Made by a program: the position numbers and the translations under genes
Virus record (IMG/VR): IMGVR_UViG_3300027740_000026
Location: 1 to 60,450 of that record
Reading direction: 5' to 3' (one strand)
DNA length: 60,450 nucleotides
DNA from: a virus
Taxonomy: Duplodnaviria; Caudoviricetes
The notes under the pieces: generated by a model
The model's database searches: none
The model's input: only the letters and a program-made list of their open reading frames with translations
What the model was told of the DNA's origin: nothing
Shown: in pieces, positions 569 to 57,136 of the stretch
Layout: each line of letters begins with the position of its first letter
Numbering within the stretch: position 1 is the stretch's first letter

Positions 569-758
569 GATGTTTTTTGACCAGACATTCGATTTTTACC
601 AGAGCCAGCCCCTGCGGCTTACGGGTGCCGTATTCCCATGAGAGGACCGTCCTCATAGTCACGGAGAAAAGTTTGGCAAACCGTGCCCGTCCCTCCGTTT
701 TGTTCAGCCGAGGGTACAACTTTTCCCGTAACGCCCTGATCTCTTTATTTGTTGCCAT
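543..758 (-). CDS. XRE-type HTH protein
   Basis: FAKLFSVTMRTVLSWEYGTRKP helix-turn-helix pattern. Confidence 0.75.
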   Translation of the reverse strand: MATNKEIRALREKLYPRLNKTEGRARFAKLFSVTMRTVLSWEYGTRKPQGLALVKIECLVKKHLDAASTTC

Positions 759-1074
759 TTTTTTTCTCTCCGCTACTTTTTCCTATTTGCTGATAACACA
801 GTATCATCAGCTCTTCTTCTGTCCCAAAAATACGCTTAAATTCGGCAGGGTTTCCGTGGATCGACACCTGGCCTGTCTGATGATGCTCCAGACATAAACC
901 GAATGCCTTTTTGTGGTCCCTGTTCCCATGCCGTAAAACATGATGCAGATTGCATCCCGGCACGTCATCTGGATCTTGGCCCATGTCTGCCAGTATTTTC
1001 CGGCACACCATACAGCCATGTTCCCTAATTTTTTTGTGCCACCGTTTTTGCTCGGCGGTTGGGTTGTTTGCCAT
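745..1074 (-). CDS. Ref-like (RecA-dependent) HNH nuclease
   Basis: GCMVC...LHHV...GLCLEHHQ...SIHG...FGTEEEL pattern. Confidence 0.7.
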   Translation of the reverse strand: MANNPTAEQKRWHKKIREHGCMVCRKILADMGQDPDDVPGCNLHHVLRHGNRDHKKAFGLCLEHHQTGQVSIHGNPAEFKRIFGTEEELMILCYQQIGKSSGEKKNGNK

Positions 1075-1233: not shown

Positions 1234-1257
1234 TGCCGCTTACTTCAATCGTTATGC
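1234..1257 (+). other. Truncated attC (right half only)
   Basis: CCGCTTACT-tcaatc-GTTATGC; GTTATGCCC is the exact complement of GGGCATAAC at site A2. Confidence 0.6.
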
Positions 1258-1479
1258 CCATACCCGCTTGAACTCCGGGTTAGCCAAATAAACCTTTTCA
1301 GAGTTGGAGTAACGGATATTGTCGGGCGCTATTTTCATGTAATCCTTCAGGTCTTTCGTGGCTTGGGGGACAGACAGCCCGAAATAATCAACCACTGCAC
1401 TTCGGTTGATACTCCCATATTGATGCAGTAAGAAATCAATAAAGCGGAGGCGTTGTTCAACTGCATACTTTAAGGGCAT
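1252..1479 (-). CDS. Stand-alone winged-HTH resembling the N-terminus of CapW/BrxR-type WYL regulators (cassette cargo)
   Basis: QRLRFIDFLL..YGSINRS...YFGLSVPQATKDLKDY...APDNIRY....KVY...PEFK; 75 aa, no WYL domain. Confidence 0.75.
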   Translation of the reverse strand: MPLKYAVEQRLRFIDFLLHQYGSINRSAVVDYFGLSVPQATKDLKDYMKIAPDNIRYSNSEKVYLANPEFKRVWA

Positions 1480-1562
1480 AACCAGTCATCCAAGCCGACC
1501 AGGTTGAAGCGCCGTTGCCCAGCCGTGGTCTTTCGGCTGGCGGCTTAATTAAAACGTTGGCC
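1476..1562 (+). other. attC site A2
   Basis: GCATAAC-cagtc-ATC[C]AAGCCG...CGGCTTAAT-taaaac-GTTGGCC; resembles aadA-type attC. Confidence 0.9.
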
Positions 1563-1566
1563 AGAA

Positions 1567-1755
1567 TCAAATAGGTGGCTCAGTGGATATAGGAACATTA
1601 TGGTTCTGCCCATATTCCACGACAGCCGTTTTAATTTCACCCGCAGACAACCCCGTCAAATACAACCAATCAATAACCAACTCGAAGTGGTGATCCTCTG
1701 TGGAATTTCCGGGGATCATGTCGCTACTAACTCCAGGGGGTAGATTGTCGGACAT
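1567..1755 (-). CDS. Hypothetical protein (cassette cargo)
   Basis: MSDNLPPGV..IPGN ORF between GTTGGCC and GGCCAAC core sites. Confidence 0.65.
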   Translation of the reverse strand: MSDNLPPGVSSDMIPGNSTEDHHFELVIDWLYLTGLSAGEIKTAVVEYGQNHNVPISTEPPI

Positions 1756-1772
1756 AATCAACACCATTAAAG

Positions 1773-6581: not shown

Positions 6582-6869
6582 TTACTCTTCTTTGGCATTA
6601 TCTTCTGCTTCTTTTAAGCAGATTGGGCACGGGTCAACATGAACAGACAATCTCCCTCGTTTTTCCTTTGTCGTGCTGAGGTTGCAGAGACCAGTTCCGC
6701 AACGATCACAATACACGTCAAATTCTACGTCAATTCTATCCGGCTGTATTTCAAAAGTTGGCATTTCATCCCCCCACGCATTGCCGACGAAGCATCGACT
6801 GCCACCCGGCAACAATAAAATCGGCATAAATTTGATATTGTGACAACTTCCCGTACCAACCAATGGCAT
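6582..6869 (-). CDS. Zn-ribbon-like small protein
   Basis: CDRCG...CPIC; likely start MPTFEI. Confidence 0.6.
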   Translation of the reverse strand: MPLVGTGSCHNIKFMPILLLPGGSRCFVGNAWGDEMPTFEIQPDRIDVEFDVYCDRCGTGLCNLSTTKEKRGRLSVHVDPCPICLKEAEDNAKEE

Positions 6870-7377
6870 ACGGATCGTTGACCTCTACAAGCAGGAATCG
6901 GCCATCAACGTTCAGACCAAAATCAATGGCCGCCGTAATTGTTTCAGGTATAGTCCATGGGAAGGCGGGTGAATAATCCCGCTCAAAATCCGAGTAGCAA
7001 AAAATACCCAGAATTTGACCATCGACAACATACGCCCGCCATTCTGCTACAAAATCCAGTATTTCAGAGGCGACCCATGGCCAGGGAGCAGGTTCAGAAA
7101 GGATTTCGCTTGCAAATCTCTTTGGGATGTCTGCTGGTTTGTAAAACAGTGGTCCAGGGGGGGCAAAGTCCCGGTAAATTCTTCTTCCCATTGGCCGTAT
7201 CCAATCGGGGTAAGGATCGCATGCCGGCCATGGGTGAAGTTTCCGGCAATATTTTACTGATCCGATAAGAATAGCCTCTGGGTCTGGATCATAGATCAAT
7301 TTGCATTTTAACCCGGCAAGTGCAAGGGCTTTATGCTCATCAGAGTTTTCCCATGATGGTTCTACGTTGACAATCAT
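6766..7377 (-). CDS. ATP-grasp protein, R2K/DUF4343-like
   Basis: EWRAYVVDGQILG, AIDFG, LLVEVND.YAIGWYG motifs. Confidence 0.75.
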   Translation of the reverse strand: MIVNVEPSWENSDEHKALALAGLKCKLIYDPDPEAILIGSVKYCRKLHPWPACDPYPDWIRPMGRRIYRDFAPPGPLFYKPADIPKRFASEILSEPAPWPWVASEILDFVAEWRAYVVDGQILGIFCYSDFERDYSPAFPWTIPETITAAIDFGLNVDGRFLLVEVNDPYAIGWYGKLSQYQIYADFIVAGWQSMLRRQCVGG

Positions 7378-7599
7378 CTTGTTTCTCCGTCGTTCCCAGG
7401 CCATTCCGGGTCGCTTGGGTCCGGGTGCCTAATCAGTTTCCGCTGATACCGGTTGTAGGCCTCGACCTCTTGCTGCAGCATTATCCGATAGTCTTGGTCA
7501 AAAACGAAATCTTCTTCGGTCATCCGGAAAACCTCTGGAGCCAAAGGCCAACAGCACAGATGATCGTGGCGCCGATGATTAATCCTGCGATTATGTCCT

Positions 7600-7908: not shown

Positions 7909-7955
7909 TCCTAACTATCGCTGCACCCGACAAGCGGGTGAGCTTTTTGTTATGG
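7909..7955 (+). other. attC-like site A5 (minimal 47-bp family)
   Basis: TCCTAAC-tatc-GCT[G]CACCCG-acaag-CGGGTGAGC-ttttt-GTTATGG. Confidence 0.82.
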
Positions 7956-8641: not shown

Positions 8642-8734
8642 CCATAACAATCGGTTCAACGCAGATGGCGGGATCTGCTGTTGAGTTTTAAATTTTCTTC
8701 GGTGGCCCGCCACTGGTTAACCGAAGCGTTAGGA
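8642..8734 (+). other. attC site A6
   Basis: CCATAAC-aat-CGGTT[C]AAC[G]CAG...CTGGTTAACCG-aagc-GTTAGGA; two extrahelical bases. Confidence 0.92.
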
Positions 8735-9184
8735 GGAGCAATGCCCCGTTCCGCCTCCACAATGCCCGGCCATGGCCTGAATAAATTTGTCCATCTTGCG
8801 CAACAACCTTGTGTATCTCTCAACAAGATTTATCCCGTCAAGGTGTTCAATCAGAGCGTAGAAGGTGTCTTTCCGATCGTGGCATATCTCCGGCACTGAG
8901 GTCGTCACAAAAACCTTCAGCTCCGTCTTGGCTTTTATCTGCCTCACACAGGCTAATAGTTCGTCAAGGTATAGGCACGGTTCGCCGCCCAAAAACAGCA
9001 CGTCGTCTAGCCCCTTGGCGTTGCTTACAACCGTTTCTACTATCGCCGCAACATCGGGCTTTGTGAGGCCCAGCCCATCGAAGCGACGGTCAATGCAGTG
9101 GGCGCATTTGTTGTCGCACGCACTCGTAAAATGGACATCAAACGAGTTATATATTCCGTCGCAACAGTTACAACTAAGTTTCAT
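8729..9184 (-). CDS. Radical SAM protein, probably truncated (cassette cargo)
   Basis: CDNKCAHC (CxxxCxxC) and FLGGEP; only 151 aa; TAA inside R' of A6. Confidence 0.8.
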   Translation of the reverse strand: MKLSCNCCDGIYNSFDVHFTSACDNKCAHCIDRRFDGLGLTKPDVAAIVETVVSNAKGLDDVLFLGGEPCLYLDELLACVRQIKAKTELKVFVTTSVPEICHDRKDTFYALIEHLDGINLVERYTRLLRKMDKFIQAMAGHCGGGTGHCSS

Positions 9185-9191
9185 AAAAACC

Positions 9192-9278
9192 TCCTAACAA
9201 TAAAATTAACCTGACGGGGTTGATCCGTCCGTTTTTTGCGGGTAGTTCTCGGCCCGCAGGTTATTTAAAGCGTTATGC
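9192..9278 (+). other. attC site A7
   Basis: TCCTAAC...AAAT[T]AACCTG...CAGGTTATTT-aaagc-GTTATGC; CCTCCTAAC complements GTTAGGAGG of A6. Confidence 0.9.
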
Positions 9279-9569: not shown

Positions 9570-9672
9570 CAATCCTCCGTAATTCTGAGTTGCGCTCGCG
9601 GCGTTTCGGTTATGGGTTTTTCTCTCTGGCCCACAATCTGCATGGCAGAATTACGGAGGATTGTTCTTTTTT
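9570..9672 (+). promoter_or_regulatory. Leader hairpin/attenuator before the replication initiator
   Basis: Perfect 18-bp inverted repeat 9570-9587/9646-9663 followed by a T-run. Confidence 0.7.
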
Positions 9673-9687
9673 CTGTTGAATCAAACA

Positions 9688-9954
9688 ATGGATAAGAAAT
9701 TAAAATCTATCTTTGATAACCACACGTTAGGACCAACAACTAAATTGGTCTATATTTATTTAGTACAAATGGCAAACAAAGACGGTGAGTGCTGGCCAAA
9801 TTACGAGCATATCATGGCTGCGTGTGGAATTACGAGTAAGGCCACTGTATCTAAATCACTTAAAGAGCTGACTTCCGCAGGGGAAATTGTGGTATTCAGA
9901 AAATCAAACGGTTTTAGGCATTCAAACAGGTATGGAATATTGCCGTGTCGATAG
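9688..9954 (+). CDS. Winged-HTH replication initiator-like protein
   Basis: KLVYIYL...ANKDGECWPNYEHI...CGI.SKATVSKSLKEL...G...SNRY; adjacent to iterons. Confidence 0.8.
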   Translation: MDKKLKSIFDNHTLGPTTKLVYIYLVQMANKDGECWPNYEHIMAACGITSKATVSKSLKELTSAGEIVVFRKSNGFRHSNRYGILPCR

Positions 9955-10063
9955 TTCATTTTTTGAACCTTCGATAGTTCATTTTTTGAACTATCGAAGG
10001 TTCATTTTTTGAACCTTCGATAGTTCATTTTTTGTGCGATTGGATAGTTCATTTTTTGAACCG
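9948..10063. repeat. Putative replication origin: five ~23-bp iterons
   Basis: TCGATAGTTCATTTTTTGAACCT-like units at 9948, 9971, 9994, 10017, 10041 with a GTTCA/TGAAC dyad (degenerate in copy 4); followed by AT-rich TATATAAAGACCT repeats. Confidence 0.85.
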
Positions 10064-40468: not shown

Positions 40469-43400
40469 ATGCTCGAAGAATTTGTCGAATTATATCAAGA
40501 TCCCGGTTTTAACTCCCTCTCTCAGCAAGACAAAGAGAAAGTGTTCCGTGGATACTTTGAGGATAATGTTGATCGTGAGTTTTTCAGCCTGCCACCAGAA
40601 CAACAGGAAATAGCCAGGACAAACTTTGTCAGGGAGCAAACACTTCCTGAACCAGAGCCGACCGTTCTTGGCGAGGCCGGAAAAGCTGCCAGTGCTATTG
40701 TCCCGAAGTGGCTTGGAACTTTGGGTTCTGGAGTCGAGGCTTTTGGCGAGGGTGTAAGCAAGGCCGGGGCTGAAGACATTGGAGGGAAAATATCCGACAT
40801 CGGAGCTGGGTCAAAAAAATATTGGGGCCAGAAGGTAGAAGGTCTTGCAGCTCATCCAGACATTCAAGGGGCAATTCTTGACAAACCATCCCTCGCCGTT
40901 GACCCGAAGTGGTGGGCATACAACACCATTGATATGGCAGGAAGTCTGATTCCGACCATTGCCGGTTATGCCATTGGCGGGAAACCTCTTTCCGGTGCGG
41001 TAGGCGGTTCCATGGAAGCTTCGCAAACATGGGATGACATGCGGAAAGCCGGGGTATCTCCAGAAAAAGCAGGCGCCGCAGCCTTGGCGGTTGGAGTTGG
41101 AACAGGTATCCTGAACGCTCTTGGCGTTGATAAAATGCTTACGAAAAGAGCCGGTGCTGGTTTCGCAAGCAAGGTGAAGAATTTTCTTATTTCCGGGACA
41201 TGGGAAGGCGGGACAGAATGGGCGGAAGAACCATTTGTCGCCGTTGTTGAGGGTATAACACAAGGGAAGCCGTGGCAGGAAATAGCCCAAGACGTAAAAA
41301 AGAGAACGAAAGAGGGGTTCAACGTCTTTCCTCCTTCCATGCTTCTTGGCGGTATTGGAGGGTCATCAACTAGACCAACCGAGAAGCCTAAAACAGCGGA
41401 AACAGGAGAAAAAACACAGGAAGCAAGCCGTGTTCAGCAGCCGGTGACTTCTGAAAAAATACTGTCTTCTCTCAAAGAATCTCTTTCTGAAGGGCAGATA
41501 TCACCAGATGAAGTCCGAGCCAACATCAATGAGTTCGCGGAACAAGGTGTGACTCCTGAACAGGTCGAAGCTGTTATCCGAAGTTTCAAGCCAGAACAAC
41601 CAATCCAGCAAAGAGCCGACGAGACGACACCTGCGGCCAGAAGGGCAACGGAATCTCAGTTCAAGGCACAGCAGGAACTAAAAGAGCAGCCCGGTTGGAT
41701 GCAAACCGACAAGCCAGCCAGAGACGATTCTGATTTTCTCCAACAGATGCAGAAATCGAGGGAGTATGCCAAGGCTAAAAATCAGCCCGGCGCATCGTTA
41801 AGGTTTGAGGGTGAATTTGATCCCAATCAGGTTGTATCCGGAGAAGATGGCCTGCCGCTATTATTTAAAAACCCTATCTTGGCAATTCGATATGCGCAAA
41901 AGAACGCACCAGGAGCGAAGTGGCTGAAAACAGACAATGGTGTTGTGCTTATCGGTGGGAAAAAACCGGAACAAAAATCAGTGGAAGCCACGCAACACGG
42001 GAAAATCAGACAGCAAGAGCTTCGTGACGTTGTAGACGCTGACCCGTTAAATGCGGTTGCAAGGGAAATTCAAAAAGAGGGCGGGATCAGGCTTACCGAT
42101 GATATTAAAAATACTTATAGCGCCGATACCAGGAACCAACTCAACAAGCGTTATCCCGGCCTGTTCAGCAACAACGGGAAAATTTACGGAGATGAAGCAG
42201 CGGAGAAAGCAGGCTTTGAGTCGCTTGACTCTTTCGTGGAAGCACTGAAAACCTCCAAAACAAAAAGTGAAATCGGCAAACTGGCAAGAGAACCAGATTT
42301 AAGCCATATAGACGATATTGTAAAAGCAGGGCTTGAGCCAACAGTTGACGCTTTAGGGCGCCCGGCAAAAATGAGGGCTATCGACCTTGCTCTTGGCGAT
42401 GAGGTGCAGGCCAGCGGCGATGATGTCCCGGCAGACAGATACACAGTTAAAGGGATTGACAAGGCTGGTCGCGTCGTTCTGGAAGATGGCGTTGAAGTCC
42501 GGGTTGACGCCGACACAGAACTTGACGTAGAAGGGCGCAAGCGATCTGGCAAAGATTTTGACGAAAACAACCTGCTTCCTTTGAGAAAAGGAGAGGAAGC
42601 TGAAGACCCATTTTCTTATGAACAAGGCAACATAGAACCGAATGAGAAAGAAATTACCGGTAGTGGTAGAGAAGCGGAAGGGGCGGTGGATGGTAAAAGT
42701 GTTGTGGGCGCAGTTGGAGAGAGGCCCGTTCAAAAACCTGAGCGAAGCCGTGCTGTGCGGGCTGACGATGCTCCCGGAAAGGGTGTTCAAGGCGTAGAGC
42801 CATGGCAAAACAGCGATCTTGCCACCAGTCCGAACATTTCTCCATCCAGAGTGACGGCAAAGAAACAGGCGGACGGGAAATACGGCATGGTGTTTATTGG
42901 CACCGGCAATGAGGTGTTTCCTGGTGAGCGGTTTTCTTCAGTGAAAGAAGCTCGGGATTTCTTTAAGGTTCAGCAAGCAAAAGCACAGGCCGCTACTCTC
43001 TCCGCACAGGGCGCGAGTACAGAGAGTGGCCTGACTCCACAAGGAGCTATCAAGGCCAAGCCGAGCCCGACGGGCGAATCGGCTACTTATAACCCTTTCA
43101 GAAATAAGGCTGAAAAGGCACGGAAGAAATATGAGTCAATGAGCGGGAGGACTGTGCGCGACGATGCAATGGAAAAATCGTTTCCATTAGGCGCAGGGTT
43201 TGGGCGAGGGACGCAGCGTAGCCGAGACAAAGCCATTGATTCCAGCGTTGCCCGTGCAACCCGTATAGTTGAAGCCAGGCGGGAAATGGACCAGCTTGAA
43301 GCCCAGGCCGACGCATACGACCGAGGGGAAATCACGGCGCAGGGACGAAGAACAAAAAGCGAGAAGCTTGTGGTTGCCGAGAAAGAACTTCGCAGGCGAG

Positions 43401-46400
43401 AAAAGATGTTGCCGATTATCAACCGGCCCGATGGCGCTACGGTGATCACCAGGGAGCAATGGAACAAAACCCATGCTGACTACAAAGCTATTTCCGTTTC
43501 CCGTGATGGTACATACCGATATAGAAGCATGATTATTAACGGGGCATTGACTCCGGTGTTTATGACGGATGCGAAGGAGACTGGACTACCAAAGACGAAG
43601 GCTTCCCAAGTAAACAAAACCCCGGAATCTTTAACTAAGCAACCAGTTAAGGAAAGTCAAGTGGGCTCCGACACGGATCAGGCTGCTTCGGAGACTCTGT
43701 TGAGTGCGCCTGGTTCAACAACCCAACCTCCAACGCCTGTAACAGATGGTCAGCCGGTCAGGGCAAACGAGAAACCCACCGCGTCTGTAAAGGTTCCATC
43801 GGGCGCACCAGTGGGGGTTGGGGCTGTTGCTTCGACGCCAGAAGAAACATACCCCACGTCAGGCGAAAAGGTTGATGGGCGCACGGTTAGACAAACGGTT
43901 CCCAACCTGTCGTCAATTGAATCCTCAATCCCAGATGGGGAAGAACTCGCGGGTGTCCGGGAAGTTCAAATGTCCCTGTTTACCCTTGATGAATCACCAC
44001 TTGCCACCGATGCTCGCACAAAAAAGCTCGCGGAGGAAATTAGGGCATCTGGAGAGATTTCCCCGCTGATTGTCGGGGTGGATAGCAAAGGGCCTTATAT
44101 CATTGAGGGAGCGCACAGATACGATGCGCTAAAAATCCTCAGGGCCAAGTCGTTCCCGGCAGTGGTGGTAATCGACAATGAAGCAATTGAGGCCAAGACC
44201 GTAACAGCCCCAGCAATCAAACAACAGTCAAGCAAAGAAGCCGAACCAGATCAGCAAGTTGCACCATCAACCCCAGACGATGCCGGATTAAAATCAAGTA
44301 AGCCTGCCTCCGAGATGACCGCCGCAGAGCTGCTTCGTGCCGCCGCTGATAAAATGGATGGTAAGGCAGAAAAACGCTCAGATGCTGAAACGGCCACAGA
44401 AGATACCGCCAAACAAGCCGAACAGACCGAAGAGAAAGCCGTTACCGAGAAAACGACAAAATCCGCTGCTGATTTGTCAACTAAGGATGACATAACCGGC
44501 GATAAACAGGAAGCAATCACTTTGCCGCCTGGTAATTTCAGCCGTGAAAAATTGACCATTACAAAGCGAGGCCGCAAGTGGTTCGAGGCAACTCGCGAAG
44601 GGAAAACCTACCCGGTAAAGGTTGAAATAAACGAGACAAGCACAGGTTGGGAAGTTGGGCAGACATATCCAACCCCAGCAAATATCGATGTGAACTCGTC
44701 AAGATATGGGGCAACTACGACCATATACCCGTTATCTGATAACCAAGAGCGAGAGTCAAAAAGAGTATCGACAATTCCAGAGATAAAAAAATGGCTTGCG
44801 TTTGTCGAAGAGAAAGCACCGGACTATATTTATCAGAATGGCGTTGATAAGCTGAAAAGCCTTGGGATTGACGATCATCCTGAGTTGCAAGCAAGGCTTG
44901 ACGCTGCCATCGATTCGGTGAAGGTGGCAAAGAAAAAAGCAGCGACGGCAAAGGACGAAGCCAAAAAAGCCGAGGCAGCAATACCAAGAATATACTTGAG
45001 CGTTCCATATGAAGACCGGGCTATCGCAAAACGGAACGGTGCCAAGTTTGACGGAGACAGGTCGCAATGGTATGTGACCGGCTCTGTGCCGGAAGGATTA
45101 AAAAAGTATGGCACTGACGGCCCTGGTGGGAGTGGCGTCTTGCCAGATGAGCAGTTTCGCATTGGTGGCGGGCAAGGCTATGGATGGCGTGAGATGCACC
45201 CCGGCGAGACAATGCGCAACCCCCGCGACGCAGGGCCTAAGTATATCACCATTATATCCGCATCAAAGAAGTATTTCCGGGATGACGGTATGTCGTTCGG
45301 CGTTGGAGACGAGCAAGGATATGTTTTCTCGGCGATAGCAAGGGAGGCAACCGAAGAAGAATCCGCACCGTTGCGCACGAAGGAAGCGGCAAGCGCGGAG
45401 AAAAAGAGAGCGAAGAAAGCATTACAAGGAATAGCCGCCGAAATCCAAAAAGACGGCGAGCGGCCCGATGGCTCAAATGTGACGGGAGGTACACATTACT
45501 CCGACACGCAGAACATCTATGGTGGCGGAGAATGGTTTACCATCGGCGATGAATATATCTGGTACGTCAAAAATAACGGGATGGACGGTGATAATTGGAG
45601 CAGCAACAATGTCAGCACCGGTGGGGCTGGCGGTATTGGGTGGCGAGTGCCGTTTGACGAGAAGCTGGCCGAGAGGATAAAAAAAGAGTCCGCCATAGCA
45701 TCCCCAAGCAAAGACGCTTCGCTCTATTCCCATGCCGCCCAAACCTACGCCACCACTCCCGCAGAAGTAGAAGCAGAACTCCGCAAGTCTTTCCTTGGCA
45801 AAGGCACCGACAACCTGATCAAGCGGGATAAGCTGGAAGTTGTGCGGACTGAGACCGGTTTGCCTGATTGGATCGGGCGGGCGTTGAAGAGTGTTATGCA
45901 CAGGAGATACAAAAGAGATACCCCGATGAGCGATTGGGGGCACGCTCTTTTCGCGGACGATGGCGATTCCGTTAAGCATTATGGCGACTTCCATTATACG
46001 GTTGACACCGCCAGGTTGGGCGACAAGCTGGTTTATGCTGACTCTAATGAGTTTACGAATGCCCTGCGGTCTGCCCTGGACGAGTACGGCGATGATTACG
46101 GACTTAATTCATACCAGCAGGACGGACAGACGAGAGAGGAACTTATTGAAGCTCTTGTTGACGAAGCAAACCCTGACGATATTGTAAATAGTGCCGGCAT
46201 ATGGGACTCCGATCTTGTGGAGCTGGTATGGAATAAGGTAATGGAGCCGAATGGCTGGACGGTCGTCAAGACTGATGACGGCGGCATTGCTTTTGAAGAG
46301 TCTGATATCAACCCACTCTACTCCAAAGACGGCACCATAGTCGGCGCCTACGATCCCAAGGGCGGTAAAGACGGTAAGGGTGGCAAAATCTGGTTGGTCG

Positions 46401-49400
46401 CTGATAAGATCGCCAAAGGACAAGCTGCCGGTGTTGCGTTGCACGAAGTTTCACATGCCTTACTTTTGAGCGACGAGAAGTACATGGCCGCCCGTGCCAA
46501 GATCGAAGCTGACTTTGAACGACTGGAAAAAATCGGCCACAAGGCGGTAAAGGCGGCGTTTGCTCGGGTGCCGGAAGACACCCCGGCAGAGTTCCGCACC
46601 ACGGAAGGCATAGGGTATTTCCTCGAAAATGCCGCGAACAAGCCGCAACCCCTTTACAAGCGCATCATTTCCGCAATCAAGATGGCCCTTATGAGGCTTG
46701 GAATCCCCACCACCAGGATGACCGAGGCTGATTTTGTGACGCTCTTCACGGCTGGCGCAAGAAATTGGGCCAGGAAGACCGACCAATTTGCCGAAGCCGG
46801 GAATATGGTCGGCGATACCGTCCCGGCAATGTTGAGCCAGATGGCAAAAGAGTTCGGTATCAGTATTGAAGAGGCGCGGAGTCTTAAAGCTGGGTGGACC
46901 GATAGGCGAGTAGACAACGAGATCCAATATGCGGCATATGATGACGGGAGGACGAAAGCCGTTATAGGCTTTGTAAACCCGCAAGATTTTGTTTTAGCAA
47001 CAACGCCGAGCAAAACGTCAGCGGCCTCTATTTCAGAGTCAGCGAAGCCGCTTGACATCGACAAGATGAGGAAAGAATCCCAATCCCCATATCTGGTTGT
47101 TGAAGAAGACGAACATATCATCGACCACGAAGGGCGTCACAGGATGTCAGCACTGGCAAAAGCCGGTGTTACTTCTGCCCCTATCGTCCTTGACTATAGA
47201 AGGCCAGCCAACCGCAATGACGTTGAGACAATAGAACTTGAGGGGCAGTCTTTCGAGTTTGGCGGGACCGGCAAGACCTTAACGGTCTCCGGCGTTATTC
47301 CCCTTACGTTTGAAAACAAAACCCGCCTGAAACAGTTAATGGGAGAAACCGACATCCGGTACAGCAAGCAGCGAACAGAATCAGAAATGAAAGAACTCGG
47401 ACTAAGGAGGCACAATGGACATCAACCTTTGGCGGAAAAACTTGGCAAAATTATCGGGCAAAAGGTCACGGCCTGGCGTTTGCCTGACGCCATTTATCGA
47501 CAAGATCGCAAGGGGCGAGTTGACACTACAGGAAGTCCTCGGGGGGAACATGAATTCGCCGGGAGACTTGCCGACATCTTCAAAAAGAGAATCGTCTGGG
47601 TAGAAATCACAGGAGGGATAAACGGGGTTGTATTGATGCGTGATAAATTGATGCGCGACACGATCTTCGTAAACGTCTTTGCCGACAAACCAGCTCATGT
47701 AATCTTTGGGCATGAACTGTCACACCATATCGAGCAAGACACCCCTGAATTATTTGACGCCCTTTACGAAGCTATTGAGCCCCTCATAAAAAATACCGAA
47801 ACGTACAAGACAACACGGGATATCAACCTCAGCGACAAGGGTGTGAAAAAAGAGATCATAGGCGATCTGCTTGGTGACAATTTCAATAATCCTGCATTTT
47901 GGCAAGCGGTGGAAGCTCATACCGAGAAGGGAAAATTTAGGCGGCTGATTGACAAGGTGGTTGCGTGGTTGGATGGGGTGCTGGCTCATTTTACCGACTT
48001 TGGGTCTTCGCAGTTTGTAGATGATACTCAAGAGGCGAGGGACTCCCTTGCTTTTATCGTTGCAGAATACGGCGTTTCCCGGCGCGAAGATGGCAGGTGG
48101 GGTAACGGAGAAGTCCGGTACAGCCAAGCCGAAATACAGGAAGCGGCCAAAGCCATCTATTCCAAGCTCGAACAGGTAGCAGCCTCAGCATTCCAAGGTA
48201 TGAAAGCGCAGTCCGTTTTGAACTTCCTCAACAAGCAAGGTGTGAAGAAAACTGAAATCGAAGCGACCGGGCTTGACGCATGGATCAAAGCCAAGAAGCC
48301 TGCCGACAAGGTAAGCCGTGGCGAACTCCTGGACTTCGTGAAGGCCAACACCGTTGAGCTTGAGGACGTGGTGCTGGGGGGAGGTTTAACAGCGGATGAG
48401 CAGAAAGAACGAAAAAGCCTAATCGCGGAGGAGCAAAATCTTGGCAGGGAGATAGGAAAGATAGAGAGAGAGCAAGATGAATTAATTGACGATCAAGAAG
48501 AGGTCGTAGTTAATGGTGTTGGTTTTGCCGTTGGAAGATCTGGTCAGGTGTTATACGACAACAAAATGTTCGAGTACAATAAGGCCGAGGAAGAGTATGT
48601 AAACTCTTTGGGCGAAGATAATATTGACAGCATACAGGCGAGTATTTTTAGGGAAAAAGGTGGAGCCAAGAAAGACCATCGCAGGGAGGCAGAAGAAAGA
48701 CAAAAAACATATTCGACAGAGCGTTATCGGGAACGCTTTGAAGCGAGAAATAAAAAACCGAAAAAGTCAGATCTATTTAATTACAATATTGTGCCGGAAA
48801 AGATATTGCGAGAAACCCTCGCCAAAAATGAACTATCCCGTCTATTGAATCTTGCACAAAAAGAAAAAGATTTGCTGACTCGCAAAGAAAATCTCATACG
48901 GAAAAAGACTCAAATATCGCGCAAAATAGGGTCGTTCAAGGAAGACGACACCCACTTCTCCCAGTATGTCGAGCCGGGGGGAGTTGAAGGCTCGTACCGG
49001 GAGATGTTTGTCACGGCACCCCCAAGTAATGCCGAAGGAACAAGGAGTGATTTAAGAAAACTCAGAGAGTCATTTGAAGAAAAATATGGGGAAGATTTCA
49101 CAGTATCCATGTTGTCGGCTACCGAAAAAACTGAATATGAGTCACTTGGTAGAACAGCAGGCAGGCGGCAATCCACTTGGCAAGACGGCCACTCCCAATA
49201 TTCGGACGTAAAAAATCCTGTAATAAGAATTAGATTTAACACGGTAGAGGCGGACGGCAAGAAAATTCTCCGCATCGAGGAAATGCAGGGGCCTAACCCG
49301 GACAACCAAGCCAAGATGCCCACACACCTCCTGGACAACATCTACAACTTGGGAGTCAAGCGCATCCTGGCCTACGCCAAGGAGAACGGCTTTGACGGGG

Positions 49401-52366
49401 TGGCTCTTGCTACCAAAGACAATCTTTCACCGGGTGAGACTCAGGCTGCAAGGTGGGGGACAGAACGAGTTGACTGGAAAAAGGACGGAGATGGCTTCAT
49501 TGTCAGCGTAAAAGAACAGGAAGGCGGTGACGCTGGAGGGATAGACATAGAAGGGGAGGCCAGGCGGCGCGGTGTGCTTTTGGAAAAGAAAGGCATCACG
49601 GTTACTTCAAAAGAAGAGTTGATGTCTGCCCTAAAAAGAGGCTTGCGTGAAGATAAATCTCAAAAGGTAGCCGACGCGATATGGTCAAGGATGCAAGCGG
49701 AGAAAGAGGGTACTTACAAGCCGCGCCTTGAATCGTTTAAGAAGCTTTATGACGAAGGGATTATCCCCATGCTGGAAGCCTACGGCAAAGGGAAGATGGA
49801 GGAGGCGGAAGTCGTTCTTGAAAAAGGCGGGATGAGGCCCCACCCAGACGGGATGATGGTAGAGACAGCGGAAGAGCGCGTTACCATGCCATACCTGCCA
49901 ATCAGCCCGGCAACCCCGTCAAGATTCCCGATGTTTTCCAGGCAGAAACAAGGACCGCTCGACCGATATAAAGAGCTTGTCAAAACCTTGCGAGACGATA
50001 AGGTAGATATCTACGAGAAGCAAAAAGCACTTGAAACCCACATCAAGAAAGCATTGCCTCCTGTTGAGCGATTTCGGGTAATCCATCTTATCAAGAACAT
50101 TGCCAAACCAGAGACAAAAGAGGGCCGAGAAAAAGCCCTTGCCTTGGCGATTGAGAAGGTTGAAGAGGCCCACGAGAAAAAACAAAGCGTGCTGTCAAAG
50201 ATTCTTGACGACAAAGCTATTCTTGCCAGGCGCCGGGAGAACATTAAAAACATCCGTGACTATCTTGGTCTGACCGATAACGACATGAAAAAGGTCAGCA
50301 AAAAAGATATCCGGTTGATGAGTGACCCTGAATTCAAGAAGTTCAAGATTGATCTTTACAATCTGGCTGTTGACTTCGCAGAGCACAAACAGGCAAAACT
50401 CGAACTGATGGATATTATCTACCGGAAGCAGTTAAGGGATGTGGAGAATCTTCAGAAAGCAATGGAACTGCCGACCATCTCAAAGATGACAAAAGAGCAG
50501 CTTGAAGAGTTTGCCGAAATCCTTGACCGGTATGAAATAGACGACAGGTTTCTAACCCAAAGACAGCTTGAGACTGTAGACGCTACTGATTTGAAGGGAA
50601 TTAAGACGTGGCGCGAAGCAATGGAAAAGCTTGCGGAAGAGACCGGTCATTCCGTTGAAGAATTGAGCAAGATAAAAGTTGATGGATGGGACGGGTTCAC
50701 CTGGGACACCCGTCTTGCCATGAAGAATCCGTTTTATAAAATGATGGTTGAGGAGATCCACAAAAACCTGCTTAATGCACAGGCCGCTTCATTTGGCGTG
50801 GAAGACAGGTTCCGCAAGCTCTATAAAGCAGCATGGAAAAGCAGACCACGAAAGCTGATTGACCGCCTTATTCCAACAGATGAGCGTGTTTTTGATTTCA
50901 TTGAATCTGGGATGGCGAACAGTGAAGACATGACGCCGGCAGAAATTGACCTGGCTCATTTCATCCAGAAATACTTTGCTGACGCTCTCACCAACCTCAT
51001 TGAGACCAAAGTCCTTGAAAAAGGCCGGGAGAATTACTTTGTCCACATGAGGCGGTCGTTTCTTGAGACATGGAAAGACGATGGCCTGATGTCCGCATTC
51101 AAGAATATGTTCAAGTCTCAGGAGCAAGACCAGGCTGTCTTTGAAATTCTTGATGACGATACCGGGAACATCCTTCCGCTACAAAAGTTTTTTCAGTTTA
51201 GCCTGCGGAGAACTGGAGCCTTAACGCCTACAAAGAATATCGGCAAGGCATTCATGACTTACGTCCATACTTTCGAGAAGAAAAAAGCATTGGACGCCAC
51301 TTTCCCAAAAATGATGATTTACGCTCAATCTTTAACCCCTGAGACTTACACACCAAGAGGCCTTGAAACAGACAGGAGCCTGCTTAAATTCACCAAGCAA
51401 TGGCTGAATAACAAGAAGGGCAGGCGCTTGAGTTTTGACGGCAGGATCAAGCAGGGCGGCAGACTGGACACGACCATAGTCGGCATGAGAACATTTACCA
51501 CACTGCTCGATCTTGGCTTAAATATTCCGGTCGGGGTTGCTTCGTTCGTCGGAGAGCAGACCACAAACTTTGCCATGATGGGAACAAAGGCATGGGCTAA
51601 GGGCGCGGCCAGGATGAACACCACGAAGGGCAAGCTCTTCTTGATGAAATATAAGAACTTCACGGGCCGGTCAATGTGGGAAGAATTCACAGATCCAGGA
51701 AAGGAAATAACCGAACGGTTGTCAACTGGAATATTCGGACTTTTCCACACTGCTTCCGTGGCTGCAAACAAGCAGTATTTGCTCGGAATGATTACCGATG
51801 AAGAATACAACAGCGGGAAAATCAGCGACAAAAGACTGGCGCAACTCAAAATAGATATGGGCCGACTGAGAATGGTGCCTGGAACTTCTTCTCTGGTTGG
51901 TTCAACATCTTTGGGTAGTGCTGGCGTACAATACAAGAAGTGGGCGGTGCCCATTCTCGGTCAAACCGTAGAAGATGCCAGCAAGTTGATAAAGGACATT
52001 AAAGGAAGGAAGAAAGGAGCCTTGTCAACAACTGAGGCAAAAGAGCTTTACAGGATTATAGGTTTAACATCAACCGTCCTTATTGCATTGTCTATGCTTA
52101 GTGGCGACGATGACGATGATTTTATGGGGCAAATCGGGTCAAAGACTCAAAGAGAATCGTTGACACTACTGCAAGCTTTAGACCCGAAAATATGGCTTTC
52201 CACGCCAAGAACGTTGAAATTCTTGAATGATCTTGGTAATAATATACATGCCGTCATCAAGATGGAAAAATATAAAACAAAAGAAGGATATAAAGGCGTT
52301 GAAGGCTTAAAACGCCAGCTTTCTCCGCACATCTACAAGCAAATTAAAAAAGGACTGGAGGAATAA
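40469..52366 (+). CDS. Giant (3965 aa) polyvalent internal virion/ejection protein
   Basis: Two ParB-like motifs (IIEGAHRY; DHEGRHRM), DUF5710-like (YLSVPYEDR..AK..GAKFD...WYV), two HExxH motifs (HEVSH, HELSH). Confidence 0.85.
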   Translation: MLEEFVELYQDPGFNSLSQQDKEKVFRGYFEDNVDREFFSLPPEQQEIARTNFVREQTLPEPEPTVLGEAGKAASAIVPKWLGTLGSGVEAFGEGVSKAGAEDIGGKISDIGAGSKKYWGQKVEGLAAHPDIQGAILDKPSLAVDPKWWAYNTIDMAGSLIPTIAGYAIGGKPLSGAVGGSMEASQTWDDMRKAGVSPEKAGAAALAVGVGTGILNALGVDKMLTKRAGAGFASKVKNFLISGTWEGGTEWAEEPFVAVVEGITQGKPWQEIAQDVKKRTKEGFNVFPPSMLLGGIGGSSTRPTEKPKTAETGEKTQEASRVQQPVTSEKILSSLKESLSEGQISPDEVRANINEFAEQGVTPEQVEAVIRSFKPEQPIQQRADETTPAARRATESQFKAQQELKEQPGWMQTDKPARDDSDFLQQMQKSREYAKAKNQPGASLRFEGEFDPNQVVSGEDGLPLLFKNPILAIRYAQKNAPGAKWLKTDNGVVLIGGKKPEQKSVEATQHGKIRQQELRDVVDADPLNAVAREIQKEGGIRLTDDIKNTYSADTRNQLNKRYPGLFSNNGKIYGDEAAEKAGFESLDSFVEALKTSKTKSEIGKLAREPDLSHIDDIVKAGLEPTVDALGRPAKMRAIDLALGDEVQASGDDVPADRYTVKGIDKAGRVVLEDGVEVRVDADTELDVEGRKRSGKDFDENNLLPLRKGEEAEDPFSYEQGNIEPNEKEITGSGREAEGAVDGKSVVGAVGERPVQKPERSRAVRADDAPGKGVQGVEPWQNSDLATSPNISPSRVTAKKQADGKYGMVFIGTGNEVFPGERFSSVKEARDFFKVQQAKAQAATLSAQGASTESGLTPQGAIKAKPSPTGESATYNPFRNKAEKARKKYESMSGRTVRDDAMEKSFPLGAGFGRGTQRSRDKAIDSSVARATRIVEARREMDQLEAQADAYDRGEITAQGRRTKSEKLVVAEKELRRREKMLPIINRPDGATVITREQWNKTHADYKAISVSRDGTYRYRSMIINGALTPVFMTDAKETGLPKTKASQVNKTPESLTKQPVKESQVGSDTDQAASETLLSAPGSTTQPPTPVTDGQPVRANEKPTASVKVPSGAPVGVGAVASTPEETYPTSGEKVDGRTVRQTVPNLSSIESSIPDGEELAGVREVQMSLFTLDESPLATDARTKKLAEEIRASGEISPLIVGVDSKGPYIIEGAHRYDALKILRAKSFPAVVVIDNEAIEAKTVTAPAIKQQSSKEAEPDQQVAPSTPDDAGLKSSKPASEMTAAELLRAAADKMDGKAEKRSDAETATEDTAKQAEQTEEKAVTEKTTKSAADLSTKDDITGDKQEAITLPPGNFSREKLTITKRGRKWFEATREGKTYPVKVEINETSTGWEVGQTYPTPANIDVNSSRYGATTTIYPLSDNQERESKRVSTIPEIKKWLAFVEEKAPDYIYQNGVDKLKSLGIDDHPELQARLDAAIDSVKVAKKKAATAKDEAKKAEAAIPRIYLSVPYEDRAIAKRNGAKFDGDRSQWYVTGSVPEGLKKYGTDGPGGSGVLPDEQFRIGGGQGYGWREMHPGETMRNPRDAGPKYITIISASKKYFRDDGMSFGVGDEQGYVFSAIAREATEEESAPLRTKEAASAEKKRAKKALQGIAAEIQKDGERPDGSNVTGGTHYSDTQNIYGGGEWFTIGDEYIWYVKNNGMDGDNWSSNNVSTGGAGGIGWRVPFDEKLAERIKKESAIASPSKDASLYSHAAQTYATTPAEVEAELRKSFLGKGTDNLIKRDKLEVVRTETGLPDWIGRALKSVMHRRYKRDTPMSDWGHALFADDGDSVKHYGDFHYTVDTARLGDKLVYADSNEFTNALRSALDEYGDDYGLNSYQQDGQTREELIEALVDEANPDDIVNSAGIWDSDLVELVWNKVMEPNGWTVVKTDDGGIAFEESDINPLYSKDGTIVGAYDPKGGKDGKGGKIWLVADKIAKGQAAGVALHEVSHALLLSDEKYMAARAKIEADFERLEKIGHKAVKAAFARVPEDTPAEFRTTEGIGYFLENAANKPQPLYKRIISAIKMALMRLGIPTTRMTEADFVTLFTAGARNWARKTDQFAEAGNMVGDTVPAMLSQMAKEFGISIEEARSLKAGWTDRRVDNEIQYAAYDDGRTKAVIGFVNPQDFVLATTPSKTSAASISESAKPLDIDKMRKESQSPYLVVEEDEHIIDHEGRHRMSALAKAGVTSAPIVLDYRRPANRNDVETIELEGQSFEFGGTGKTLTVSGVIPLTFENKTRLKQLMGETDIRYSKQRTESEMKELGLRRHNGHQPLAEKLGKIIGQKVTAWRLPDAIYRQDRKGRVDTTGSPRGEHEFAGRLADIFKKRIVWVEITGGINGVVLMRDKLMRDTIFVNVFADKPAHVIFGHELSHHIEQDTPELFDALYEAIEPLIKNTETYKTTRDINLSDKGVKKEIIGDLLGDNFNNPAFWQAVEAHTEKGKFRRLIDKVVAWLDGVLAHFTDFGSSQFVDDTQEARDSLAFIVAEYGVSRREDGRWGNGEVRYSQAEIQEAAKAIYSKLEQVAASAFQGMKAQSVLNFLNKQGVKKTEIEATGLDAWIKAKKPADKVSRGELLDFVKANTVELEDVVLGGGLTADEQKERKSLIAEEQNLGREIGKIEREQDELIDDQEEVVVNGVGFAVGRSGQVLYDNKMFEYNKAEEEYVNSLGEDNIDSIQASIFREKGGAKKDHRREAEERQKTYSTERYRERFEARNKKPKKSDLFNYNIVPEKILRETLAKNELSRLLNLAQKEKDLLTRKENLIRKKTQISRKIGSFKEDDTHFSQYVEPGGVEGSYREMFVTAPPSNAEGTRSDLRKLRESFEEKYGEDFTVSMLSATEKTEYESLGRTAGRRQSTWQDGHSQYSDVKNPVIRIRFNTVEADGKKILRIEEMQGPNPDNQAKMPTHLLDNIYNLGVKRILAYAKENGFDGVALATKDNLSPGETQAARWGTERVDWKKDGDGFIVSVKEQEGGDAGGIDIEGEARRRGVLLEKKGITVTSKEELMSALKRGLREDKSQKVADAIWSRMQAEKEGTYKPRLESFKKLYDEGIIPMLEAYGKGKMEEAEVVLEKGGMRPHPDGMMVETAEERVTMPYLPISPATPSRFPMFSRQKQGPLDRYKELVKTLRDDKVDIYEKQKALETHIKKALPPVERFRVIHLIKNIAKPETKEGREKALALAIEKVEEAHEKKQSVLSKILDDKAILARRRENIKNIRDYLGLTDNDMKKVSKKDIRLMSDPEFKKFKIDLYNLAVDFAEHKQAKLELMDIIYRKQLRDVENLQKAMELPTISKMTKEQLEEFAEILDRYEIDDRFLTQRQLETVDATDLKGIKTWREAMEKLAEETGHSVEELSKIKVDGWDGFTWDTRLAMKNPFYKMMVEEIHKNLLNAQAASFGVEDRFRKLYKAAWKSRPRKLIDRLIPTDERVFDFIESGMANSEDMTPAEIDLAHFIQKYFADALTNLIETKVLEKGRENYFVHMRRSFLETWKDDGLMSAFKNMFKSQEQDQAVFEILDDDTGNILPLQKFFQFSLRRTGALTPTKNIGKAFMTYVHTFEKKKALDATFPKMMIYAQSLTPETYTPRGLETDRSLLKFTKQWLNNKKGRRLSFDGRIKQGGRLDTTIVGMRTFTTLLDLGLNIPVGVASFVGEQTTNFAMMGTKAWAKGAARMNTTKGKLFLMKYKNFTGRSMWEEFTDPGKEITERLSTGIFGLFHTASVAANKQYLLGMITDEEYNSGKISDKRLAQLKIDMGRLRMVPGTSSLVGSTSLGSAGVQYKKWAVPILGQTVEDASKLIKDIKGRKKGALSTTEAKELYRIIGLTSTVLIALSMLSGDDDDDFMGQIGSKTQRESLTLLQALDPKIWLSTPRTLKFLNDLGNNIHAVIKMEKYKTKEGYKGVEGLKRQLSPHIYKQIKKGLEE

Positions 52367-56820: not shown

Positions 56821-57136
56821 ATCTCCACCTCCGTTGTTATTTTGTTGAAAAATACTTGACTTTTAAAGAGGTCACGAAGTAGATTTATTTTATTCTCCAT
56901 TCCCTCCCGTTAAGCCCCCGGTGTGCAAATGCTGGGGGCTTTTTAATTCCCATCCACGTTTTACAATTTTTGCCCGATACCCTTCTGTACTGCATGCATC
57001 GAGGTGGAGATTAACTATCCTTCTTATCGCTGCCTCCCGCGTTTTTTCGCTGGGTGCAATACCAAACAGCATATATACCAAATACGCCGCCACATATACC
57101 CCCTACAATATAGAACATAACGAAAACGAGGAAACC

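Follow-up and report, generated by a model that had tools for sequence, protein, structure and literature searches.

The DNA analysed here, which we call the window, is a virus record of 60,450 bp that represents a complete or near-complete phage genome (CheckV, 100% complete). It encodes a helicase, a primase and a P22-type large terminase, together with a leftward early operon for an Erf recombinase, a YqaJ exonuclease, an HNH protein, an ATP-grasp protein, a radical-SAM protein and a Ref-like RecA-dependent nuclease. Inside this early recombination operon lies a small gene for a winged HTH (wHTH) protein, separated by 87 nt from the 66-aa ORF upstream and by 177 nt from the Ref-like gene downstream. 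The gene, its neighbours and the repeat in which its ends lie are the following.

1252-1479, minus strand: complete gene for a stand-alone CapW/BrxR-type wHTH protein (ORF list, ATG to TAA, 75 aa)
1486-1491, minus strand: possible, weak Shine-Dalgarno-like GGATGA, 6 nt 5' of the ATG, from a reading of the sequence only
745-1074, minus strand: Ref-like RecA-dependent nuclease, the next gene downstream (Pfam PF16786, phrog_1588)
1567-1767, minus strand: 66-aa protein with no family match, the next gene upstream (ORF list, Pfam and PHROGs scans)
1251-1259, no strand assigned: stop-side arm of an exact 9-bp inverted repeat, GTTATGCCC on the plus strand, which extends to 1238-1262
1474-1482, no strand assigned: start-side arm of the 9-bp inverted repeat, the complement of GTTATGCCC, which holds the ATG and extends to 1471-1495

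No integrase or CI-type repressor was found among the 23 window ORFs scanned, a minority of all ORFs, and these 23 give no support for a temperate lifestyle of the phage. Several other features of the genome deserve mention in their own right. The ATP-grasp protein, of the R2K clade, and the small radical-SAM/4Fe-4S protein (6766-7404 and 8729-9184) are unusual accessories for an early region, and the structural arm contains a single ORF of 3,965 aa (40469-52366). A 42-nt repeat, 93% identical between its copies at 1079-1120 and 7912-7953, contains a GC hairpin and, after it, a T-run, both read on the plus strand and thus opposite to the surrounding genes; one of the copies is immediately 5' of the Ref-like gene. 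Where the leftward and rightward operons diverge, the control region has a perfect 18-bp inverted repeat (9570-9587 and 9646-9663, arms 58 nt apart) and a 23-nt repeat in two tandem copies (9948-9993), which are candidate operators or a candidate origin.

Comparison of the 75-aa protein with the PDB sequences by phmmer gave seven matches at E≤10, of which five were significant. All five are wHTH-WYL-WCX regulators, and each was aligned via its N-terminal residues, about 10-90.

7tb5, P. aeruginosa CapW: E 7.6e-16 (best)
7tb6, S. maltophilia CapW: E 5.4e-14
9c5g, R. leguminosarum CapW: E 1e-7
7qfz, BrxR: E 2.9e-6
7t8k, BrxR: E 7.6e-4

A profile of 77 short homologues recovered the same five CapW/BrxR sequences, and no others at E≤0.01, from the PDB sequences. 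The AlphaFold2 model of the protein, built on 77 homologues, has a pLDDT of 95.7 and the topology H-H-H-beta hairpin, with these elements.

Residues 5-21, 26-33 and 37-50: helices
Residues 37-50: recognition helix, S-V-P-Q-A-T-K-D
Residues 55-58 and 63-66: strands of the wing
C-terminal end: F-K-R-V-W-A, specific to the family

When this model was used as a Foldseek query, CapW and BrxR chains came out at the top (TMq 0.84-0.95, rmsd 0.4-1.1 Å, 31-46% identity), and the remaining folds lay below them at a TM of about 0.6. Scans against Pfam (a copy without PF26109), PHROGs, PADLOC and NCBIfam were empty even at E≤10. The 75-aa protein is a CapW/BrxR-type winged helix, complete and free-standing. 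The initial annotation had recognised it as the N-terminal wHTH of CapW-type regulators and had proposed a structural comparison; PDB matches confined to WYL regulators and the Foldseek ranking bear the recognition out, and in the comparison, now run, CapW overlays the model with a TM of 0.93 and an rmsd of 0.5 Å.

The residues by which CapW touches DNA have been retained. Operator binding by S. maltophilia CapW is abolished by mutation of R32, or by the triple mutation of S42, Q45 and S47, as described in the available text of PMC9122588. In the phmmer alignment these positions correspond to R26, S36, Q39 and T41 of the 75-aa protein, three of them identical and one changed from Ser to Thr, and R26 and S36 are at least 90% conserved among the 77 short homologues. 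The DNA-contact positions given for BrxR in the available text of PMC9122589 map to conserved R10, S36, Q39, Y57, K62 and Y64 of the short family. With the CapW contacts kept and the positions equivalent to the BrxR contacts conserved in the family, the DNA-binding surface is predicted to be intact.

Nothing follows the winged helix. The protein ends directly after it, with zero residues beyond residue 75, and the proposal that it lacks a sensor is thereby upheld: the WYL domain that senses its ligand, single-stranded DNA (ssDNA), and the C-terminal WCX domain are both absent. The next minus-strand ORF 3' of the gene, after the 177-nt gap, encodes the Ref-like nuclease and not a WYL domain. 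Induction through a WYL pocket cannot occur in this protein. Also absent are the linker helices equivalent to residues 71-119 of BrxR, which form the core of the BrxR homodimer in the available text of PMC9122589; CapW and BrxR dimers are additionally held by swapped WYL and WCX domains, according to the same text and that of PMC9122588. Since all of the described dimer-holding elements lie beyond residue 75, the protein would not be expected to enter a CapW dimer as a subunit, and the suggestion that it could be a dominant-negative, at least by heterodimerisation, is for this reason unlikely.

The start and the stop of the gene lie inside the exact 9-bp inverted repeat, of which there are two exact copies only in the window, and the gene had been described as a cassette bounded by recombination core sites. 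The data do not support this description. On the coding strand, the stop-side arm is made up of one extra base and the conserved codons TGG GCA TAA (Trp-Ala-stop). When extended, the arms reach 25 nt and are 72% complementary, which is within the chance range: our own binomial estimate for such a pair within 300 nt is about 0.3 chance matches per kb, and the first 10 kb of the window contain 49 imperfect inverted pairs of ≥16 nt. As RNA, the unit folds no better than shuffles of it do (z -0.34). Among 12 related loci the same 9-mers occur in L007 only, in a different register, and the flanks are unconserved in 11 of the 12. An integron-type cassette was likewise rejected, since there is no attC-like structured site, the stop-side arm is coding, the extended repeat is within the chance range and the flanks are unconserved. 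The accompanying argument, that a gene running from one core site to the other is not an accidental fragment, keeps its conclusion and loses its premise: family conservation indicates that the gene is complete, but the core sites are not good evidence for completeness.

Repeats of another kind surround the neighbouring gene. The 66-aa ORF at 1567-1767 is flanked by a 20-nt, 85% inverted repeat (1543-1562 and 1773-1792), whose arms pair to close a long-range stem when the RNA is folded in silico, with a z of only -1.5. A 28-nt motif related to this repeat occurs three times in the early operon (1230-1257, 1535-1562 and 9251-9278). The 20-nt repeat and the 28-nt motif may represent transcript or regulatory punctuation of the early operon, or shuffling sites, in a manner comparable to the T4 'PeSL' cassettes.

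A word-indexed search at E≤5e-13 found at least 71 short homologues, of 41-132 aa, that end at the same point. Most of them are 73-78 aa long, with 48-85% identity, and PF26109 is the precomputed family of all 71. An exhaustive search at E≤1e-3 gave 904 representatives; among the best 150 of these, the winged helix is the last part of 55 proteins, another 37 are full-length (≥260 aa), and the remaining 58 have intermediate lengths, many of these probably being cut by contig ends. The short proteins have the fixed C-terminus F-K-R-V-W-A, directly followed by the stop, and the 75-aa query fits the general pattern of the family, which is a length of about 72-80 aa (or an N-terminal extension) and a wing followed by F-x-R-x-W/F-x. 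From 39 to 64% GC, the phages show almost no variation in the recognition helix. In comparisons with three homologues, pN was 0.10-0.21 and pS about 0.9, with synonymous sites saturated; these values point to strong purifying selection on the gene.

A FastTree domain tree of 177 rows and 75 columns, in which every third close relative was kept, is weakly resolved and unrooted. In this tree 74 of the 81 short rows lie on one side of a branch that has none of the 38 full-length rows on that side. The query's group comprises 77 rows (74 short, 3 of 82-92 aa and no full-length protein) with a branch support of 82. The other seven short rows lie at scattered positions between full-length proteins; separate truncations or partial gene calls may account for them. 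The short form may be either a truncation or the ancestral module. Some relatives have additional parts: in P0072, P0073 and P0075, of 145 aa each, the CapW-type winged helix is fused to an Xre-type HTH (PF01381/PF12844), and others, such as P0057, have Cys-rich N-terminal extensions. The short forms are a conserved phage and prophage family of PF26109-only proteins. In the literature searched, including passages of the CapW and BrxR founding papers, we found no mention of phage-encoded or WYL-less CapW/BrxR homologues, and no published name for a family of stand-alone CapW-type wHTH proteins. The DNA-binding head itself was already known; what is new is its conserved, phage-borne and sensor-less form.

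Homologues are present on five further IMG/VR viral contigs and in named phages. Gp088 of Stenotrophomonas phage Sonora has 75 aa and 59% identity (tblastn) and is annotated as hypothetical; gp136c of Salmonella phage Arash, of 330 nt, has 41% identity (tblastn) and is annotated as 'WYL domain-containing'; and the BFVD fold-mate is A0A411AW77 of Pantoea phage LIET2, with 97 aa and a TMq of 0.87. None of these three has been assigned a function in its annotation. The host of Sonora, S. maltophilia, is also the source species of one characterised CapW (PMC9122588, available text). A search of bacterial genomes, one per species for 185,579 species, yielded nine loci, of which three are full-length and six short. 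The neighbours were examined for each of the six short copies, and five of these adjoin ORFs matching PHROG families; the PHROG-type neighbours include a primase, a Mu-type transposase, a baseplate protein, a reverse-transcriptase PHROG, a Lar-like domain and a thymidylate synthase, the last (at L012) being not phage-specific. The JGI metagenomes contributed 46 loci, of which 35 are short, 9 long and 2 cut.

The genes around these homologues have little in common. Fifteen other proteins from the early region of the window were compared with seven homologue loci, whose GC content ranges over 39-64%, and none was matched there. Our neighbour survey, from which three duplicates (L094, L099 and L113, of L093, L008 and L111 respectively) as well as nine full-length and two cut loci were dropped, covered 145 neighbour ORFs in 44 elements; these represent 96 PHROG families, the commonest of which, phrog_2045, occurs in 3 ORFs, and no partner gene is conserved. 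As there are no shared neighbours and no fixed partner, the gene appears to move on its own among unrelated phages. It is often found in replication or recombination modules, with a primase near it in L004, L006 and L009 and with Erf and YqaJ in the window. A Ref-like nuclease of phrog_1588 lies directly 3' of the homologue in L007 as well (L007:1899-2237), and thus in two of 13 elements; a two-sequence HMM of this neighbour found it in L007 alone among 12 loci.

That the wHTH gene is paired with a Ref-like gene in two elements with nothing else in common is a hint of a link between DNA damage made by the phage and the silencing of ssDNA-sensing regulators. One metagenome contig of 109.5 kb carries identical copies of the gene and its neighbours 66.1 kb apart (L111 and L113), and the simplest explanation is that a circular genome of about 66 kb was assembled as a concatemer. 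Just upstream of the short wHTH gene of L010, in a Paraburkholderia region that resembles a prophage, the genes include one for a Lar-like restriction-alleviation domain protein and one for a match to a reverse-transcriptase PHROG (L010:6936-7718 and L010:5547-6917).

If the head has kept its DNA-binding surface, it is of interest where its sites might be. The nine full-length genes closest to the query (L024-L032, from Burkholderiales and one Xanthomonadales) have a recurrent palindrome upstream, GCGTATA-N5-TATACGC, present in 8 of the 9 at ≤3 mismatches. There are often two or three sites, 15-17 bp apart, beside or overlapping a -10-like TATACT or TCTACT (e.g., L027), and the palindrome is a candidate operator of one CapW subclade. 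As a universal CapW operator it was rejected, because it is present in none of 29 other gammaproteobacterial CapW/BrxR loci (L062-L090), which have different T-rich repeats. With the motif in 8 of 9 loci of one set and 0 of 29 of the other, operators evidently differ by CapW subclade. CBASS operons (patatin effector, cyclase and E1-E2) adjoin L015 and L017 in the canonical arrangement, and L016 adjoins an E1-E2/JAB plus MBL operon; two CapW genes of the close full-length set are found beside CBASS.

The phages themselves have few such sites. In the 60-kb window the palindrome occurs once at ≤3 mismatches, against 2.5 times in shuffles; this copy, at 57069, has 2 mismatches, and by a binomial estimate about 0.2 such copies are expected by chance. 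It occurs once across 12 related phage and prophage loci. No palindrome common to the 13 elements exceeded shuffles, no common inverted repeat was found upstream of the short gene across the loci compared, and no CapW-type operator was found near the window gene, whose neighbours are phage recombination and nuclease genes and include no defence operon. Any CapW-like specificity of the protein would therefore have its sites outside the phage DNA examined. Counts of the palindrome in the short-copy bacterial genomes are uninformative, being below the reversed-pattern control in all five of five. A full-length CapW-type gene, sought with the family profile, is present in none of six short-copy genomes, a small sample against a baseline of 47 of 401 sampled Burkholderiales genomes with any family-profile match.

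Among known regulators, CapW (7tb5, 7tb6 and 9c5g), a repressor of CBASS, resembles the protein throughout the winged helix (42-46% identity, TM 0.92-0.93, rmsd 0.4-0.5 Å), and its Arg32, Ser42 and Gln45 are kept, with Ser47 conservatively replaced by Thr. However, the 75-aa protein is without the linker helices, the WYL ssDNA sensor and WCX, it is encoded by a phage and not beside a defence operon, and the short family is on its own branch. BrxR (7qfz and 7t8k), a WYL repressor of BREX and other defence islands, shares the fold (TMq 0.91-0.95, 31% identity) and has DNA-contact positions that map to conserved residues of the short family, whereas its recognition helix has S-R-Q-Q where that of the phage protein is CapW-type, S-x-P-Q-A-S/T, and its dimerising segment 71-119 and sensor domains are absent here. 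Aca (anti-CRISPR-associated) HTH autorepressors, which phages and mobile elements encode downstream of small anti-defence genes and behind a promoter whose inverted-repeat operators they bind, are small and conserved while their neighbours vary. The 75-aa protein is likewise small, conserved, phage-borne, predicted to bind DNA and variable in its neighbours, but it belongs to another fold family, no conserved operator repeats were found with it and its upstream genes are heterogeneous. Orphan antitoxin-like phage counter-defence genes, as described in the available text of PMC11825919, offer a parallel in that a detached component of a host defence module neutralises that module; there it is an enzyme that reverses the action of the toxin, whereas here it would be the DNA-binding head of a regulator, proposed to act on transcription.

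What such a head does for a phage can be explained in several ways. Because it is a truncated form of a longer architecture, it might be a functionless, decaying remnant of a captured capW gene. The signature of strong purifying selection, the C-terminus fixed in at least 71 homologues, the pLDDT of 95.7 and the separate branch of the family make this exceedingly improbable. Small HTH proteins of phage early regions are usually phage regulators, and the protein may be a transcription factor of the phage's own, such as a timing switch or, like Aca, the autorepressor of an accessory operon with strong expression, sharing ancestry with the CapW head and having no relation to host defence. The combination of a conserved wHTH gene with variable neighbours, as for Aca proteins, is in keeping with this, and so are the Xre-type HTH fusions of P0072, P0073 and P0075, an architecture typical of phage regulators. 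Nevertheless, neither upstream of the gene nor across the 13 elements does any inverted repeat or palindrome go beyond shuffles. In L002, L004, L006, L008 and L014 there is little or no gap to the preceding gene, or an overlap with it, and hence no room for a promoter of the gene's own. The upstream neighbours range from 69-aa proteins to primases and are not uniformly small. Phage immunity regulators, moreover, normally diversify together with their operators, whereas this recognition helix is nearly invariant in phages of 39-64% GC. On balance we consider a role as the phage's own regulator a fair possibility, somewhat less likely than the reading that we favour.

Two other explanations place the target in the host. 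The main packing partner of each CapW WYL domain is the wHTH of the opposite protomer (PMC9122588, available text), and a free head therefore has a natural docking surface: on the WYL domain of a host regulator of the CapW/BrxR type it might take the position of that regulator's own head, with the result that ssDNA sensing or DNA binding is disturbed. This would be another version of the dominant-negative suggested at first. We regard such protein-protein action as very unlikely, since without dimerisation elements the head would not enter the dimer as a subunit, the most conserved residues of the family are those that contact DNA, and there is no conserved partner gene. It is also conceivable that the targets are host WYL regulons other than defence, such as the DNA-damage responses of DriD and PafBC type, and that the phage reshapes the damage response at the time of replication. 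The phrog_1588 nuclease gene that adjoins the wHTH gene on its 3' side, both in the window and in L007, would suit this explanation, as would the frequent location of the wHTH gene in replication or recombination modules. It is quite improbable nonetheless, as the nearest full-length relatives are CapW and BrxR, significant PDB matches are to CapW and BrxR only, and the pairing with Ref is seen in just two of 13 elements.

The reading that we favour, as a real possibility short of a probable one, is that the 75-aa protein acts as a non-inducible occupant of host CapW-type operators and serves anti-defence. It would bind operators of the kind occupied by host CapW-like repressors. CapW leaves double-stranded DNA once ssDNA is bound by its WYL domain, and this activation through CapW is important if CBASS is to stop the induction of a lambda prophage (both from the available text of PMC11662680). 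A head that does not sense ssDNA would remain on the operator when the host repressor lets go, and would blunt the rise in expression of CBASS-like operons that DNA damage or infection triggers. The pay-off might be largest upon prophage induction, or when ssDNA arises from the phage's own nucleases (Ref-type) and recombinases; such a protein would be of most use to temperate phages or to phages with their own ssDNA-making recombination functions or nucleases. The available text of a preprint on V. cholerae reports that WYL-mediated derepression is not required against a first infection and raises the levels of defence proteins for later ones. As derepression is not required to block the first infection, any gain within a single lytic cycle is uncertain.

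Several results are consistent with occupation of host operators. The DNA-contact residues of CapW are kept in a phage-borne protein; the CapW-type operator is no commoner than in shuffles in the window and occurs once in 12 loci; and the family is under selection and independently mobile in phages. Against it, all known dimerisation elements are absent, and because of this the protein may bind a palindromic operator weakly. Operators are specific to subclades and the short family is on its own branch, and one DNA specificity can therefore not fit all hosts. None of the six carrier genomes has a full-length CapW-type gene, a weak point given the baseline of 47 in 401, and there is no lysogeny gene among the 23 scanned ORFs of the window.

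WYL repressors, that is CapW, BrxR and their relatives, are now viewed as a general switch that raises anti-phage defences upon the appearance of ssDNA. The counter-defences known to us act on defence proteins or on their signals, and we know of none that acts on the WYL transcriptional switch. A conserved, phage-borne, operator-binding head alone is what such a counter-measure would be expected to look like. The wider proposal, that these widespread phage 'repressor heads', with the ssDNA sensor removed, are non-inducible super-repressors that silence CBASS-like abortive-infection operons at times when these would be turned up by DNA damage, prophage induction or replication of the phage, is put forward tentatively and with some doubt, from sequence and predicted structure. 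If true, it would represent counter-defence at the level of transcription by regulatory mimicry, and would provide a guilt-by-homology route to the defence regulators that phages target. Even if the protein is a regulator of the phage itself, the head of CapW circulates among phages as an independent module, and the existence of this module bears on how wHTH-WYL-WCX regulators were assembled.
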